This document shows positions 19,561 through 25,848 of a stretch of 25,848 nt of DNA, in pieces. The DNA lies in assembly GCA_955651875.1 (NCBI GenBank), contig CATPAP010000285.1:1-25848 (forward strand). The letters run 5' to 3'. This DNA is from Candidatus Dormiibacterota bacterium (GTDB lineage: Bacteria > Chloroflexota > Dormibacteria > Aeolococcales > Aeolococcaceae). Position numbers and translations under genes: made by a program. The notes under the pieces are model-generated. The model had not been told where the DNA came from. It saw only the letters and a list, made by a program, of their open reading frames with translations, and did no database searches. Positions within the stretch are counted from its first letter, which is position 1. Every line of letters starts with the position of its first letter.

Positions 19561-21300
19561 ATGGGCACCAGGCCGGAGACAGATCTCAGCGACCGCGAGG
19601 CGAGCGGTGGCGACGATGTCGTGCTCACAGCGCGAGCCCAGCCCGCGCTGGACGAGGCATCGAATGCTGTGGCAGTCACCGATGCCGACGACATCCTCAG
19701 ATACGCATCGACCTCATGCCTGGCGCGCTTGGGGTACACGGCCGCGGAGTTGATCGGCAAGCCTCTCGCCACGTTGATCCATCCGGAGGATCGGGCGCGT
19801 GCTGCGGCCACGCGGCAGAGCAACGCAACCGCGGTCGAAGGGCGCACCGTCAGCGTGCGCTACCGGTGCAAGGACGGCTCGTATGCCTTGATCGAGAGCA
19901 AGAGCGAAACGGTCATGGACCAGCTCATCGGTGTGATGCTCGAGACCCAGGCGCTGCTCCGTGACGTGGGTCAGCGGAGAGAAGCGCAGGCGACGATCGA
20001 ACGCCAGGCGCTGACCGACTCGCTGACCGGGCTCGCCAACCGCAGCCTGCTCGCGGACCGGTTGAGTCAGGGTCTCAGGCACCTCGAGCGGAATCCGGGA
20101 TTCCTCGGCGTGCTCATGCTCGACCTCGACCACTTCAAGGTGATCAACGACACCCTCGGCCATCAAGTCGGCGACGGCGTGCTGCTCGAGGCTGCGCGGC
20201 GGCTCCAGCGCCTGGCACGCCCAGACGATACCGTGGCACGCTTCGGCGGTGACGAGTTCGTCGTGTTGGTGCAGGGCCTGGGCGACCCCGCCGACCTCAC
20301 GGCCTTTGCTGATCGCGTCGTCGCGGGACTGCGCGCGCCCTACCGGATCGGCAACGAAGAGGTCGTGGCGACGGTCAGTATCGGCATCGCGGTGGCGTCT
20401 CAGAGTGACAGCCTGCCGGCTGATTTGCTCCGTGAGGCAGACATGGCGATGTATCGCGCCAAGGACCGTGGACGCAATCGTCACGAGGTCTATGGTGCGG
20501 CACTTCAAGTGCGGGCCAGGGAACGTCTGGAGACTGAACGCCTGGTGCGGCGTGCCCTCGCCGAGGAACGCTTGGTCGTGGAGTACCAGCCCATCGTGGA
20601 CCTGGCCACCGGCATGACCGTCGAAGCCGAGGCGCTGCTCCGCATCCATGATGTGGAACGCGGCAAGTTCTCGCCCCAGCACTTTCTCGTGGTCGCCGAG
20701 GAGACAGGGCTGCTGCCGGCGATGGATGAGCGAGTACGGGCCACCGCGCTGGCCCAACTGGCGCGGTGGCGCGCAAATCCGTCTTTCAGCGGCGTCAAGC
20801 GCCTCGCCGTCAATCTCACCGCACGCGAGCTGGCCAACCCAGAGTTCGCATCCCGGCTTGCCAGTCGCCTCCACGCCGCGGGCCTGGAAGGGACCGACCT
20901 GAGCATCGAGGTGACCGAACACGTGCTGATGCAGACCTCGCACTCCGCAGTCGCCTCGCTCGCTGAACTCAGAGGCCTCGGTATGCACATCGGGCTCGAC
21001 GACTTCGGCACCGGCTTCTCGGCCCTCTCCTACCTCCAGAGCTTCCCGCTCGACTTCCTCAAGATCGATCGGTCCTTCGTCGAACGCATCTCGATCGACC
21101 ACCGAAGCTCATCAATCGTCGGCGCCATGATTGATCTCGCCCATGCTCTGGGCCTCTCCGTTGTCGCAGAGGGCATCGAGAATGCAGAGCAGCTGGCGGG
21201 CCTCCGCCAGTTTGGCTGCGACCGCGCACAGGGTTTCCTATTCTCGCCGCCGGTGTCCTCTGACGACTTCGCGAAACTACTCGCCGCCGAGTGCGCCTAA
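19561..21300 (+). CDS. PAS-GGDEF-EAL diguanylate cyclase/phosphodiesterase
   Basis: PAS (LGYTAAELIGK..IHPED..KDGS); DLDHFK, RPDD I-site five residues before GGDEF; EAL, EVTE, DDFGTGFS, KIDRSF, EGIE, QGF. Confidence 0.95.
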   Translation: MGTRPETDLSDREASGGDDVVLTARAQPALDEASNAVAVTDADDILRYASTSCLARLGYTAAELIGKPLATLIHPEDRARAAATRQSNATAVEGRTVSVRYRCKDGSYALIESKSETVMDQLIGVMLETQALLRDVGQRREAQATIERQALTDSLTGLANRSLLADRLSQGLRHLERNPGFLGVLMLDLDHFKVINDTLGHQVGDGVLLEAARRLQRLARPDDTVARFGGDEFVVLVQGLGDPADLTAFADRVVAGLRAPYRIGNEEVVATVSIGIAVASQSDSLPADLLREADMAMYRAKDRGRNRHEVYGAALQVRARERLETERLVRRALAEERLVVEYQPIVDLATGMTVEAEALLRIHDVERGKFSPQHFLVVAEETGLLPAMDERVRATALAQLARWRANPSFSGVKRLAVNLTARELANPEFASRLASRLHAAGLEGTDLSIEVTEHVLMQTSHSAVASLAELRGLGMHIGLDDFGTGFSALSYLQSFPLDFLKIDRSFVERISIDHRSSSIVGAMIDLAHALGLSVVAEGIENAEQLAGLRQFGCDRAQGFLFSPPVSSDDFAKLLAAECA

Positions 21301-21506: not shown

Positions 21507-21914
21507 GTGAAGCGGTTGCTGGCGGCGCTGGGGGGCGGTGTCGCCGTGTTTGCGTTGATATTTGCCCTGGCGGCCAGCCTCAACCTCACCTCTGACAGCC
21601 TGGGTGCGGGCACTGCGGTCGTCGCGTCCTGCCAGGCCGGCGTCATGAATGCCACGTATACGTCGACGTATTCATCGAGCCTGCCCGGGTACTACGTCGG
21701 GTCTGTCGTCCTCACCGGTCTCACCGCTCCGTGCTACAACCTCCCCTATAAGGTCACGCTGTCCGGCGCGGCCAACGCGTCCCTCGGTGAGGTGACCGGA
21801 ACGACGCCTGGGAGTGGCGCGACCATCACCGTAACGTTCCCGGTCCCACCGGCTGCGGGCAACGCTTCGAGCGCCCTGGTCACGGGAGTGAGCGTGGTCA
21901 TCTCGACACATTGA
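21507..21914 (+). CDS. Small secreted beta-rich protein A1 (putative fibre subunit), 135 aa
   Basis: GGAGG RBS, GTG start, Sec signal, ASLNLTSDSLGAG, Cys42 and Cys76, Thr/Ser/Gly/Val-rich. Confidence 0.85.
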   Translation: MKRLLAALGGGVAVFALIFALAASLNLTSDSLGAGTAVVASCQAGVMNATYTSTYSSSLPGYYVGSVVLTGLTAPCYNLPYKVTLSGAANASLGEVTGTTPGSGATITVTFPVPPAAGNASSALVTGVSVVISTH

Positions 21915-22080
21915 CCGGGTCCGATCCGGAGCGCTGTAGCGCGGACGACCGCCGATGTGACGACCTTGGCACATAACAACTGCCCCAAAACCGCGCCACC
22001 ATATGGGCTACATACGATCTCCGCGGATCGGCCGACGTGAGCCCCAATGCCACGCGGTCCGAGACCATGGAGGATCACCT

Positions 22081-22470
22081 GTGAAACGGTTGCTAGGAGC
22101 CTTGGCCGGCGGTGTTGCCGTCTTCGGCTTGATATTCGCCCTGGCGGCGAGCCTGAACTTCACGTCCGACAGCCTGGGCGCGGGGAACGCAGTCGTCGCT
22201 GCCTGTCAAGCCGGGGTCATGAACGCCCAGTACGCGCACACGTACACCGCGGCGACTCCCGGGTACACCACTGGTATCGTCACGATCACCGGTCTGACCG
22301 CGCCGTGCTACAGCCTCCCGTTCAAGGTCACCCTGTACGGCGCAGCCGGCGCGTCCCTTGGCGAGGTGACCGGGACGACCCCGGCAGCCGGCACCACTTT
22401 CACGGCAACGTTCGCGACCGTTTCCGAGGCGTCGATCACCGGTATTGCGGCAGTCCTCTCAACCCACTGA
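22081..22470 (+). CDS. Small secreted beta-rich protein A2 (close paralogue of A1), 129 aa
   Basis: GGAGG RBS, GTG start; 84 of the first 111 residues identical to A1 by my manual alignment. Confidence 0.88.
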   Translation: MKRLLGALAGGVAVFGLIFALAASLNFTSDSLGAGNAVVAACQAGVMNAQYAHTYTAATPGYTTGIVTITGLTAPCYSLPFKVTLYGAAGASLGEVTGTTPAAGTTFTATFATVSEASITGIAAVLSTH

Positions 22471-22481
22471 GAGCCGGCGAG

Positions 22482-22871
22482 TTGAATCGGGCGGCTCTGC
22501 GTCGACGGCTGCGGCGACTGGCTCCGATCGCCTTCGCCCCGGTCGTCTTCACGAGCGCGATGGCTGCCTCCATCAGTCTCACCACGGATGGACTCGGTGC
22601 CGGCAGGGCTGCGATTCCCCGCTGCAATGCGGGGGGCTTGGAGGTGATCCAGAACCTCACCGGCGCGAACGTGACCAGCGTCACGGTGAAGGCGGTCCCA
22701 GCCGGGTGTCAAGGCCAGACGCTGTCGTTGACGCTCAACAATAACGCCGGGGCCAACAGCGGTGGCAGCAGCGCCGTTCCCGGGGCTGGTTGCCCGTGCG
22801 CTGTGACCGTGACGCTCGGGGCCGCCACTGCCGCCACGCCAAACGAGCAGATCGACTGGCTGATCGCATGA
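22482..22871 (+). CDS. Small secreted protein B (distant paralogue of A1/A2), 129 aa
   Basis: TTG start 11 bp after the A2 stop. Arg-rich n-region, ASISLTTDGLGAG...C, then PAGCQGQTLSLTL matching TAPCYNLPYKVTL. Confidence 0.75.
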   Translation: MNRAALRRRLRRLAPIAFAPVVFTSAMAASISLTTDGLGAGRAAIPRCNAGGLEVIQNLTGANVTSVTVKAVPAGCQGQTLSLTLNNNAGANSGGSSAVPGAGCPCAVTVTLGAATAATPNEQIDWLIA

Positions 22872-23587
22872 GGGCCTGGCGATCGGCGCTTCATCTTCCT
22901 CTTCTCCTTGGCGTGGGGATCGGACTCACGTTGATTCCGGCCGCGGCAGCGAGCATCCCGCTGACGTCAAACAATTACACCCCGTATCGGACCTGCGTCA
23001 TTACGGGGAATCCCGCAAGCACGAGCGACGTCATCGATTCCTACGTGGAGCAGGCAAACCCGGGTACCAATAACGGCGCGCTCGCCACCCTGAGAGTGCA
23101 GTCTGGTCCCGGAGCCCCCCCGGTCAACCAGCGCACCTACGTCAAATTTCTTCTCAGCACGTGCGTGCCGGCGATTCCCGCGTCTGCAACCGCGATCACC
23201 GGCAACCTGCGCCTCTGGGCCTCAACGCTGCCGGGCGGCGCCTGCCGGACGGTCAACGTCCAAAAGGCGACCGCGACCTGGACCGAGCTCGGGATCACCT
23301 GGACAAACCAACCCACCTTCTCCGCTGCCGTGGCCAGCTCGTTCACCATTGGCCCTGTCGGCGGTGGGTGCACGTACCAGGCGGCCGGCTACGTCGATGT
23401 CACCAGCGCGACGATCGATACCAACGTGGCCTCCTGGATCACCACGCCTGCCAACAATTTCGGCTGGGTTCTCAAGGACAAGACGGAGGGGAATGCCGCG
23501 ACCGTCACCACGATCTTCAGTGCCAAGGACCTCGGTACGCTCGCTCAAGCACCGCAGCTCACCGTCACCTACAAGGCCGTGCCATGA
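22868..23587 (+). CDS. Secreted protein C with a DNRLRE/CBM96-like domain, 239 aa
   Basis: ATGA overlap with B. Signal then ASIPLTS. DSYVEQANPGTNNG, RTYVKFLLS, GNLRLW, WTELGITWTNQP fit the DNRLRE/DUF7594 pattern as I recall it. Confidence 0.78.
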   Translation: MRAWRSALHLPLLLGVGIGLTLIPAAAASIPLTSNNYTPYRTCVITGNPASTSDVIDSYVEQANPGTNNGALATLRVQSGPGAPPVNQRTYVKFLLSTCVPAIPASATAITGNLRLWASTLPGGACRTVNVQKATATWTELGITWTNQPTFSAAVASSFTIGPVGGGCTYQAAGYVDVTSATIDTNVASWITTPANNFGWVLKDKTEGNAATVTTIFSAKDLGTLAQAPQLTVTYKAVP

Positions 23588-24114
23588 GCACCGGTCGGCT
23601 CCGCAAGGTGCTCAGTGTCGTCGCGGTGGTGTGCGCCCTGCTCGGGCTGGCATCGCTCTTTCATCCGCTTGGTTTTCCCGGCCCACTGACCGTGACCATC
23701 ATCAAGGGCACCTCCATGCAGCCCGCGTATCGTACCGGGGCCCTTCTGGTGCTGAGAGCGGAGTCAAACTACGCCGTCGGCACCGCGGCCGCCTACCGCG
23801 TTCCCGCAGGCGACCTCGGCGCCGGGAAGATCGTGATCCATCGCATCATCGGCGGCAACGGGACGACCGGCTTTGTCATGAAGGGCGACAACAACAATGC
23901 ACCTGACCCCTGGGTGCCCAAGCAGGCCGACATGGTCGGCGCGGCGTGGATCTACCTTCCATCACTGGGCCAAGGCCTGGTCTACCTCCATCAGCCCGTG
24001 ATCGAGGCCGGACTGGCCTCCTCGATCATGGTCGCGTACTTGCTGGCCCGCAAACCCAAGCAAGAGCGAGCTGACGCCCTCGACAACAGCAGCCCCAACG
24101 TGGAAGCCGCGTAA
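23584..24114 (+). CDS. sipW: Signal peptidase I, Ser-His (SipW/ER/archaeal-type, S26B)
   Basis: ATGA overlap with C. N-terminal TM, GTSMQP (Ser), VIHRI (His rather than Lys), KGDNN..PDP, C-terminal hydrophobic segment. Confidence 0.88.
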   Translation: MSTGRLRKVLSVVAVVCALLGLASLFHPLGFPGPLTVTIIKGTSMQPAYRTGALLVLRAESNYAVGTAAAYRVPAGDLGAGKIVIHRIIGGNGTTGFVMKGDNNNAPDPWVPKQADMVGAAWIYLPSLGQGLVYLHQPVIEAGLASSIMVAYLLARKPKQERADALDNSSPNVEAA

Positions 24115-24275: not shown

Positions 24276-25848
24276 TTGGCTTCGCCCCGGCCCATCGCAC
24301 GGCCAACGCGGTCAGGGGCACCGCTGAGGACTGCGACCATCTCGGACTCGACCGAGCAACCTGACCGCGACGCCACCCCGGCAAGCCACCAATGGCAGCG
24401 GCGACCTGTGCTGAGCATGCTCGTCCGCGTCGGTGTCGTCGCCGCCCCGGCGACGGCAGGACTGGCCACCGCCGCAACCCTGAGCCGCCTCTTGCCGCGC
24501 GCGTCCGGTGCGCCCCAAACGCTGCTGTTCTTCGCCGCGATCAGCGTGGCGATGCTGCTGGTGATCCTCGCGGTGGAGCGCGCGGCTCGCCGCCTGCTGC
24601 CCCTGGCGGCCCTCCTCAACCTCTCGCTGCTGTTCCCTGACAAGGCGCCGAAGCGTTTTGCAGTGGCCCGGCGTGTCGGCCGGCCACGCGACCTGCAACG
24701 CCAGTTGCAGGAGGCGCGGGACAACGGCGTCGAGGGCGGGGAAGTCGCCTACATGCAGACGGTGCTCGAGCTCGTGGCAGCGCTCAGCGTTCACGATCGG
24801 CAGACCCGCGGCCACTCGGAGCGAGTGCGAGTCTTCGCGGACCTCATCGCCGTCGAGATGAAGCTGCCACCCGCTGATCGGGCGCGCCTGCGCTGGGCAT
24901 CGCTGCTCCACGACATCGGCAAGCTCCTCGTTCCCAGCGAGATCCTCTGCAAGCCGGCGGCGCTGAACGCGACGGAATGGGAGAAGGTCCAGCGGCATCC
25001 CGAGGAGGGCGCGCGCCTTATCGGCCCGCTCCGGGCGTGGCTGGGCCAATGGGCGGCGGCTGTGGAGCACCACCACGAGCGGTGGGATGGCAAGGGATAT
25101 CCCCAGGCTCTGGCCGGGGAGAACATCTCTCTCAGTGGTCGGATCGTGGGGGTGGCGGACTCATACGAGGTCATGACGGCCGTGCGTCCATACCGCCGAC
25201 CGATTGGAGTGGTCGCTGCCCGCGAGGAGCTGGTGCGATGCTCGGGCAAGCAGTTCGATCCCGCGGTGGTGAGGGCCTTCCTCAACATCTCGGTGGGACG
25301 GCTGTGGCGAGTGGTCGGCGTCGGATCCTGGATAGCGCAGCTGCCCCTGCTCGCCTGGGTAAATGGCCTGGGATTGCAGTGGGGCAGTGCGATCGTGTCG
25401 GGGTCGACCGCATTGGGACTGGCCGCGCCGGGGATACTGCCGAGCCCCGACGCGGTCCCTCAGCCGCACACGACGCCTGCCATCGCCAACACCAACGCGT
25501 CTGGCGGTGCCGCACGAGGTGCCGGAGGCCCGGGGTCCACATCGCCGAGTTCGCCGGCGCATGGTGGCCTGCCCGCCGCAGGAGCGCCACCACCCGCTGC
25601 TGGACCAATCTCCCTGCCGGCACCGTCGACCTCACCGCAGCCCCCGCCGAGGCCAACCTCCCCGCAACCAACGCCAGTACCGAGCTCCGTCACCCAACCG
25701 GTGCTGTCGATGCCGGCGCCGGCAGTTGTCTTTGAGTCGACCTATACCGCGAGCGGCTGGTTCGCGGACTCGGGCGGCAGTGGCTGGACTGCAACCGTTG
25801 ATTACGGCGATGGATCGGGGGCTCATGCACTGCCCCTGAGTGGAGACA
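24276..25848 (+). CDS. Membrane-anchored HD-GYP phosphodiesterase with a Pro-rich stalk and probable PKD-like C-terminal domain; 3'-partial, start uncertain
   Basis: My translation of frame 3 (absent from the ORF track because it has no stop in the window): two hydrophobic segments, LPLAALLNLSLLFPD, HDRQTRGHSERV, LLHDIGK, HHHERWDGKGYP, ADSYEVMT.VRPY, FDP, a hydrophobic segment, a Pro/Ser/Thr-rich linker, WTATVDYGDGS. Confidence 0.88.
   Translation, partial: MASPRPIARPTRSGAPLRTATISDSTEQPDRDATPASHQWQRRPVLSMLVRVGVVAAPATAGLATAATLSRLLPRASGAPQTLLFFAAISVAMLLVILAVERAARRLLPLAALLNLSLLFPDKAPKRFAVARRVGRPRDLQRQLQEARDNGVEGGEVAYMQTVLELVAALSVHDRQTRGHSERVRVFADLIAVEMKLPPADRARLRWASLLHDIGKLLVPSEILCKPAALNATEWEKVQRHPEEGARLIGPLRAWLGQWAAAVEHHHERWDGKGYPQALAGENISLSGRIVGVADSYEVMTAVRPYRRPIGVVAAREELVRCSGKQFDPAVVRAFLNISVGRLWRVVGVGSWIAQLPLLAWVNGLGLQWGSAIVSGSTALGLAAPGILPSPDAVPQPHTTPAIANTNASGGAARGAGGPGSTSPSSPAHGGLPAAGAPPPAAGPISLPAPSTSPQPPPRPTSPQPTPVPSSVTQPVLSMPAPAVVFESTYTASGWFADSGGSGWTATVDYGDGSGAHALPLSGD

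Follow-up and report, generated by a model that had tools for sequence, protein, structure and literature searches.

In a 25,848-nucleotide stretch of DNA from a Candidatus Dormiibacterota bacterium (contig CATPAP010000285.1 of assembly GCA_955651875.1; here called the window), we analyzed an operon of five co-directional genes, located between positions 21507 and 24114 of the forward strand, that encodes two small secreted paralogues (A1 and A2), a more diverged one (B), a secreted protein with an unrelated body (C) and a signal peptidase. The four secreted proteins have in common a short motif at the predicted start of the mature chain. We propose that, in A, B and C alike, the motif is where a cognate signal peptide meets an N-terminal extension that has been conserved, that these proteins are the substrates of the operon's own peptidase and that, by analogy with known fibre systems, the freed N-terminus acts as a strand between subunits; we put the probability of this reading at roughly 45%. 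The arrangement suggests that the four proteins may link into an undescribed surface fibre.

Each of the four proteins starts with a basic n-region and an uncharged h-region, followed by A-x-A and then by A-S-[LI]-x-[LF]-T-[ST]. In A1, a small, secreted, immunoglobulin (Ig)-like candidate subunit (open reading frame (ORF) at 21507-21914; precursor of 135 residues, mature form of about 113), the residues A-L-A at positions −3 to −1 and the first 12 mature residues, ASLNLTSDSLGA, are encoded at 21564-21608; the cut is predicted between A22 and A23, and the first cysteine is C42 (codon 21630-21632). A2 (22081-22470; 129 residues, GTG start), which is 71% identical to A1, has its junction and motif at 22138-22182, with the cut again predicted between A22 and A23 and with C42 as the first cysteine. 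In B (22482-22871), for which we inferred a TTG start that is uncertain, A-M-A followed by ASISLTTDGLGA lies at 22557-22601, the predicted cut falls between A28 and A29, and the first cysteine is C48. In C (22868-23587; 239 residues), A-A-A followed by ASIPLTSNNY is encoded at 22940-22978, with a predicted cut between A27 and A28 and with Cys43 at 22994-22996. The motif had been noticed in a sequence-only reading of the window, and all four strings quoted there are present in the sequence. The interval assigned to it, 21570 to 22996, indeed opens with the A22 codon of A1 and closes with the C43 codon of C, and the motif alanine precedes the first cysteine by 19 residues in A1, A2 and B, as claimed, and by 15 residues in C. 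The contention that the bodies of both B and C differ from those of the A proteins holds for C, whose body is unrelated, but not for B, which is a diverged A paralogue (BLASTP E-value of 2e-9 against A1, 35% identity over 91 residues, both cysteines aligned). C alone carries the motif on an unrelated body, and it shares with A and B nothing beyond this stretch.

In this genome and in four near-complete relatives, the motif is private to the gene cassette. A regular expression for the motif matched 10 times in a six-frame translation of the assembly (1.84 Mb, 58% complete); a signal-peptide-like hydrophobic stretch precedes only the 4 matches in the operon. The others, on contigs C2, C26, C67, C111 and C164, fall in frames rich in Ala, Ser and Arg, lack the context of a signal peptide and were judged to be chance matches. 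A profile of the signal peptide and motif, derived from orthologues with the window's own sequences excluded, was also searched against the 20,564 ORFs of the genome. A2 (E-value 1.8e-8), A1 (1.3e-7) and C (0.004) were recovered, and the next ORF had an E-value of 1.3, so that a genome-wide motif search, as advocated in the sequence-only reading, finds the motif confined to cassette genes and in no other ORF of this genome. B reached only 9 bits at the domain level because its long stop-to-stop frame is penalized for composition. The same pattern was observed in near-complete relatives: in three of these (G009, G097 and G232), all profile matches below an E-value of 1e-5 lie within about 1-1.4 kb, in a fourth (G058) the single such match is in its A gene, and in all four the next matches have E-values above 0.1. 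Given the regular expression, the profile and the recurrence in the A, B and C orthologues of about 70 related loci, chance is excluded as the origin of the common motif.

Among orthologues, the junction (the slash marks the predicted cut) reads A/ASL[NSG][LV]T[ST][DN]SLGA[GA]xxxVAAC in 90 distinct A sequences, A/AS[LVA]x[LFV][STA]Sx[TS]LGA[AG]xxx[TV]PRC in 60 distinct B sequences and A/ASLSLTSQx[LF]TPYRTC in 56 distinct C sequences, with the common core [AG]-x-A/A-S-L-x-[LV]-[TS]-S-x-x-[LF]. Position-wise variability was assessed in 125 full-length A-family representatives of clusters at 50% identity (126 sequences counted). Apart from two cysteines, Cys42 and Cys76, which are invariant in all 126 sequences and in a 115-row alignment of diverse relatives, no part of the family varies less than the junction. 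Position −1 is alanine in 125 of the 126 sequences, with an entropy of 0.07 bits; the values are 0.41 bits for the alanine at +1, 0.53 for L25, 0.64 for V39 and 0.83 for L32, against 2-3.6 bits at most positions of the body. Position −3 is occupied only by alanine (80) or glycine (46), and position −2 is variable (F, S, L, A, M), which together with the alanine at −1 makes the classic −3/−1 signature of a type I signal peptidase site; [AG]-x-A/A is the only site compliant with this signature that is common to A, B and C. Conservation extends to about +10 (L25, [VLI]27, L32) and on through L32-G-A and V39; we know of no type I signal peptidase that reads as far as +10. The sequence-only reading had ascribed to the motif a dual role, as a peptidase recognition site and as a donor strand. 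The first of these roles is borne out by the junction pattern, the gene linkage and the confinement of the motif to the cassette, and we consider it likely that the motif is the cognate cleavage signal of the operon's own peptidase, with the exact cut a prediction; the second is plausible by analogy.

Two other possible sources of constraint or information were considered. An N-glycosylation sequon was rejected as the main constraint, since close relatives often have N26-x-T28 whereas most diverged members have glycine at position 26. Covariation of motif positions between A and C within loci was confounded by phylogeny and gave no useful signal. As a separate observation, four of the five asparagines of A1 are in N-x-S/T sequons (N26, N48, N90 and N119), of which A2 keeps the first only; these could be due to chance in a Ser/Thr-rich protein or could hint at glycosylation of the kind found on archaeal donor-strand pilins. 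The inferred n-region of B (22482-22560) is unusually rich in arginine (RRRLRR), and many B orthologues start with M-W-R-R; it fits the consensus for twin-arginine translocation (Tat), which the archaeal fimbriae known as Tafi use, poorly, and one orthologue has W-R-P.

The last gene of the operon (23584-24114) encodes a 176-residue protein with two hydrophobic segments that matches the archaeal-type signal peptidase I family TIGR02228 (64.4 bits, cut-off 51.85, E-value 1e-17). Against the equivalog family for Bacillus SipW, NF046067, it scores 20.4 bits, below the cut-off of 190 bits; by these profiles it is the same type of enzyme as Bacillus SipW and not its orthologue. The motifs GTSMQP (Ser44), IHRI (His86) and GDNN (Asp102) are present here and in the orthologues at loci L002, L003 and L005, and from what is known of SipW and Sec11, including SipW mutagenesis, we take Ser44 and His86 to form the catalytic pair, which would be Ser-His and not Ser-Lys, and Asp102 to be the conserved aspartate. 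This is the only gene of the TIGR02228 type in the assembly. Because an ordinary LepB-type peptidase is encoded elsewhere, on contig C164, the archaeal-type enzyme appears to be an extra, dedicated one. The orthologue in L003 (L003:7567-8586; 339 residues in total) has an additional N-terminal region of about 150 residues.

For A1, the AlphaFold model derived from 39 close sequences had a mean predicted local distance difference test score (pLDDT) of 69, and the model derived from 115 diverse sequences had a score of 85, with residues 41-135 mostly above 90 and a beta-sandwich from about residue 40. In both models, the signal peptide forms a helix and residues 25-34 are low-confidence coil (pLDDT 45-66); a strand at residues 35-40 is seen in the weaker model alone. 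Folds similar to both models were searched for in the PDB (Foldseek, VIA second look and VIA wide), the AFDB clusters, the Swiss-Prot models and the Atlas. The best matches were generic Ig/FN3-like domains (Ig domains of GH2 enzymes, repeats of ester-bond adhesins, FN3), with Z no higher than 6.4-7.0 and with all matches below 8, and every structural alignment to a known domain begins at residue 35 or later, most of them at residues 38-46. As modelled, the conserved segment precedes the fold and is not part of it, which is where a donor strand would lie. In the PDB, Foldseek returned nothing at an E-value of 0.001 or lower for either model, and a sequence profile search gave a single match, at an E-value of 1.5, that is due to chance. 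Pilin and fibre-subunit entries (Caf1, Ena2A, CanA and an archaeal type IV pilin) appeared among the fold matches only weakly and with low TM-scores; TasA, with its jelly roll as in PDB 5OF1, Tafi and TafE were absent from these lists, an absence that does not show that the folds differ.

The body of C is a CBM96/DNRLRE domain (residues 53-234, positions 23024-23569; 72.7 bits for PF24517, cut-off 26, E-value 4.1e-20; 77.6 bits for NF033679, cut-off 34, E-value 1.1e-21), preceded by a 25-residue N-terminal extension. The founding CBM96 binds alginate (PMC9971899), and C is, by these matches, a putative sugar-binding protein and a candidate tip or cargo protein.

These elements can be assembled into a scheme. 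From the sequence patterns and gene linkage, the precursors would be exported, probably by Sec, and the archaeal/ER (endoplasmic reticulum)-type peptidase would cut after [AG]-x-A, freeing an N-terminus that reads A-S-L-x-[LV]-T-S-x-x-L. Located before the Ig-like body in A and B and before the CBM96 body in C, this segment would then form a beta-strand paired with the sandwich of an adjacent A or B subunit; it is only by analogy with TasA/TapA/SipW and with the archaeal Tafi that we infer this pairing. Many copies of A would thus form the fibre, with B as a minor or adaptor subunit and with the sugar-binding C attached via the same kind of strand. That the mature N-terminus does act as an inter-subunit strand is a tentative proposal, to which we give somewhat less than even odds; these odds rest on the location of the segment outside the fold, the conservation to about +10, the fact that C has nothing but this stretch in common with A and B, and the precedents of TasA and Tafi.

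Several points weigh against strand donation. The modelled sandwich aligns to complete FN3 and Ig domains, with no obvious missing strand or open groove. Where the sequence-only reading had foreseen an unpaired N-terminal strand and a groove ready to accept it, the segment does lie outside its own fold in the models instead of being folded into it, but a vacant groove is not evident. Any oligomer of the A family is hypothetical, the hydrophobic pattern of the motif (leucines at +3, +5 and +10) alternates only partly, and no sequence or profile link of the A family to TasA or to the DUF1102 pilins, nor a fold link among the matches listed, was detected. The cleavage positions are predictions, and in Tafi the actual cut is five residues away from the predicted one (PMC11821415). 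Finally, the assembly being 58% complete, motif-bearing genes elsewhere in this genome are possible.

A different explanation, which we regard as a substantial minority possibility, is that the motif is nothing but a sorting tag, either an extended recognition site for the peptidase or a signal for release or folding after cleavage. A, B and C would then be separate secreted or wall-associated proteins, for example, a matrix-binding lectin (C) and small Ig-like partners, and no strands would be exchanged. A tag of this kind would account for the confinement of the motif to cassette proteins encoded beside the peptidase and for the fact that conservation is strongest at −3, −1 and +1, and it would sit well with the complete-looking sandwich of the models. 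However, the conservation continues past +10 (L32-G-A, V39), beyond the range that type I signal peptidases are known to read. Moreover, 1-3 copies of a gene for a tiny subunit, placed first in the operon, fit a polymer, and both TasA/TapA and Tafi, in which a dedicated peptidase goes together with a common mature N-terminus, use that N-terminus as a donor strand (PMC9674648, PMC12337348).

If the true cut were located downstream, for instance, after L-G-A in A and B, the conserved stretch would be removed along with the signal peptide and would represent a long c-region or a pro-peptide. That the cleavage sites are predicted only, that the experimental N-terminus of TafA differs from the SignalP site (PMC11821415) and that A and B keep a run of small residues, G-A-[GA], at +11 to +13 are all in line with such a possibility, but it appears improbable: C has T-P-Y-R-T-C in place of L-G-A, [AG]-x-A/A is the sole −3/−1-compliant site that A, B and C all possess, position −2 is variable as at a true site, and the leucine at −3 of the alternative site is unfavourable. 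Less probable again is a motif that has no present function and is a mere remnant of the duplicated 5' end of an ancestral gene, kept by common descent or by gene conversion. Because A1, A2 and B are paralogues, part of their likeness does stem from descent; yet the body of C is unrelated and the motif is nevertheless kept in 56 distinct C orthologues from three phyla, and the junction is the least variable part even though the bodies of the family have diverged to 30-40% identity.

The proposed strand-linked assembly of A, B and C can be compared to three known systems. In TasA, the donor strand consists of mature residues 28-38, and the N-terminus of TapA resembles it and has been modelled in the TasA groove (PMC9674648; PMC10151520). 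As in TasA/TapA/SipW of Bacillus subtilis and CalY/SipW of B. cereus, the operon encodes an ER/archaeal-type signal peptidase with few cognate substrates; as in TasA/TapA, the conserved mature N-terminus of a major subunit recurs on an accessory protein whose body is different; and, as there, the stop codon of the accessory gene overlaps the start codon of the peptidase gene. Unlike TasA, which is a 234-residue jelly roll, the subunits here are modelled as Ig/FN3-like sandwiches of about 113 residues; the gene order also differs, and the accessory protein carries a CBM96 domain. The Pfam family of TasA-like proteins, Peptidase_M73 (PF12389), has no match on A1, A2 or B at E-values up to 10, none among the families of the 115 diverse relatives and none anywhere in the incomplete assembly. 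When the diverse A-family alignment (alignment A3) was compared by hhalign to an alignment of TasA-like proteins of Chloroflexota (alignment A5), only 18 signal-peptide columns were aligned, with a probability of 20%, and the junctions differ (A/ASLxLTSxxLGAG here versus GT[FW]A/YFSD...N.F.AGT[IL]DL there). Of the 301 genomes of the phylum that were sampled, 24 have TasA-like genes, and the A family is in none of these 24. At the resolution of these comparisons, membership of the A family in the TasA/camelysin family was not detectable.

The resemblance to Tafi is of the same general kind. TafA, TafE and TafC are predicted Tat substrates with beta-sandwich domains, TafC having a lectin-like domain as well, and other haloarchaeal proteins share only the N-terminal ~40 residues of TafA; loss of the TafD peptidase stops TafA processing and the formation of fimbriae, and strand donation in TafE has been seen by cryo-electron microscopy (PMC11821415; PMC12337348). 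The experimentally determined N-terminus of TafA is five residues from the SignalP site (PMC11821415). Like the Tafi of Haloarcula hispanica and Natrinema, and the Sec-dependent taf-like clusters of Thermococcales and Archaeoglobales, the operon has a signal peptidase I of its own (TafD in Tafi) and two beta-sandwich paralogues (TafA and TafE in Tafi) along with a candidate tip protein (TafC, with an N-terminal pilin-like and a lectin-type domain), and, as in haloarchaea, where the conserved N-terminal region of TafA also occurs on otherwise unrelated proteins, the N-terminal segment is found on an unrelated body. Unlike the cassette analyzed here, Tafi has so far been described from archaea alone, its pilins comprise about 190-215 residues with a variant jelly-roll fold or a DUF1102 fold, and the haloarchaeal versions use Tat. 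TafG (DUF5305), TafB and TafF are absent from the present cassette, which has four gene types and a CBM96 protein as the tip candidate. No sequence match to the Tafi pilin families was detected for A and B (with Pfam) or among the 115 relatives of A.

Like the chaperone-usher pilins (type 1 and P) of Gram-negative bacteria, in which the tip adhesin joins by the same mechanism as the subunits, the A proteins appear to be small Ig-like subunits with a short N-terminal extension before the fold. Those pilins, however, are without the seventh strand, whereas the model of A1 looks like a complete sandwich. Furthermore, their assembly depends on a periplasmic chaperone and on an usher in the outer membrane, and genes for these are absent here; by contrast, the hosts of the present cassette are described as monoderm, and processing would be carried out by a dedicated SipW-type peptidase. 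The cassette resembles TasA/TapA/SipW and Tafi in its design, in which a peptidase of its own goes with paralogous candidate subunits and with a putative tip or cargo protein that bears their N-terminus; its parts are different and much smaller.

NCBIfam includes signal peptides of the 'SipW-cognate class' and alternate-signal exported families (TIGR04088-TIGR04090), in which the conserved region runs past the cleavage site and the gene lies beside a SipW-type peptidase. At E-values up to 1, A1, A2, B and C have no NCBIfam match apart from that of C to NF033679 (DNRLRE), and the 115 diverse relatives of A have no Pfam or NCBIfam family in common; accordingly, this motif class is not catalogued. 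A Pfam scan of these relatives at E-values up to 0.1 listed 25 families, none in more than two members, and A1, A2 and B themselves have no Pfam match at E-values up to 10.

Two fibre systems, that of TasA in Bacillus and Tafi in archaea, are known to have a dedicated signal peptidase that serves few cognate substrates. The same design logic recurs in the present cassette, with unrelated, much smaller candidate subunits, in abundant, uncultured soil phyla. We raise, as a more speculative suggestion than strand pairing itself, the existence of a new class of bacterial strand-donation pili that would be independent of TasA, Tafi and chaperone-usher systems, with pilins of about 11 kDa, Sec export, a private SipW-type peptidase, no chaperone or usher and a CBM96 lectin joined via its N-terminal strand, so far confined to uncultured soil lineages (Limnocylindria, Dormibacterota and Actinomycetota). 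Should strand pairing be confirmed, strand donation without chaperone and usher would be recurrent in bacteria described as single-membraned, a pilin of about 113 residues would provide a minimal model for studies of self-assembly, and one way in which these organisms attach to polysaccharide matrices would be suggested. The motif is, moreover, a practical search key for additional substrates and for the annotation of the A family.

The A family is large. A word-indexed search yielded 479 homologues of A1, all named hypothetical, in metagenome-assembled genomes (MAGs) of Limnocylindria-type Chloroflexota, and a profile search of 1.84 billion representatives yielded 1,176 clusters at an E-value of 0.001 or lower, 416 of them at 1e-10 or lower, so that the family has a minimum of 1,176 clusters at 50% identity. 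When GTDB species genomes were scanned with the closer alignment of the family (alignment A2), 73 loci were detected in MAGs of Chloroflexota (Limnocylindria), Dormibacterota and Actinomycetota. With our own profiles for A, B, C and the peptidase, 80 loci were tallied, two of which (WIN and L007) are the window's own stretch; 69 of the 80, across three phyla, have the complete cassette, in which A (1-3 copies), B, C and the peptidase follow one another in this order on one strand, and most of the loci lacking the full cassette are on short contigs or at contig ends. After the peptidase, the related loci that we inspected have no further conserved gene. The distribution is patchy: only 6 of the 301 sampled genomes of the phylum (G000 included) have the A family, and the cassette was not found in G119 and G173, two genomes of the same genus as that of the window that are both over 90% complete. 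This patchy spread across Chloroflexota, Dormibacterota and Actinomycetota suggests horizontal transfer.

Variation on this scheme was also observed. From locus to locus, there are 1 to 3 copies of A, and in L003 a third copy (L003:8742-9131) is located downstream of the peptidase gene; some of the extra copies in Dormibacterota have the variant junction LAAGLGTTSQSLGSG. No longer, fused homologues of A1 turned up in a search aimed at them, which is weak evidence, and three long matches of the profile search (P0126, P0133 and P0252) were read as frameshifted gene calls. Relatives of 295-323 residues (P0211 and P0258) have the junction LA/DSLNLTSDNLGAG, with aspartate at +1, followed by an A-like domain and an extra C-terminal region, and shape matches in the Atlas suggest that a small A-like domain is found at the start of proteins from Actinomycetota that also have Laminin_G_3, collagen or RCC1 parts. 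Both the long relatives and these multidomain proteins may be further cargo or tip proteins.

Within the window, which has a G+C content of about 67%, stop and start codons of the operon's genes overlap in two places: the stop codon of B and the start codon of C share ATGA at 22868-22871, as do the stop codon of C and the start codon of the peptidase gene at 23584-23587 (again ATGA). Upstream of the operon (19561-21300), a protein with GGDEF and EAL motifs (RFGGDEF, EAEALLR) is encoded, and downstream (24276-25848), an HD-GYP protein (HDIGK, HHERWDGKGYP). A conserved link to genes of cyclic di-GMP signalling was nevertheless rejected because the flanking genes differ among the related loci that were inspected, with acyl-CoA dehydrogenase, aldehyde dehydrogenase and PPK2 in some and RNase Y, SpoVS and MutS in another; the association is therefore local.

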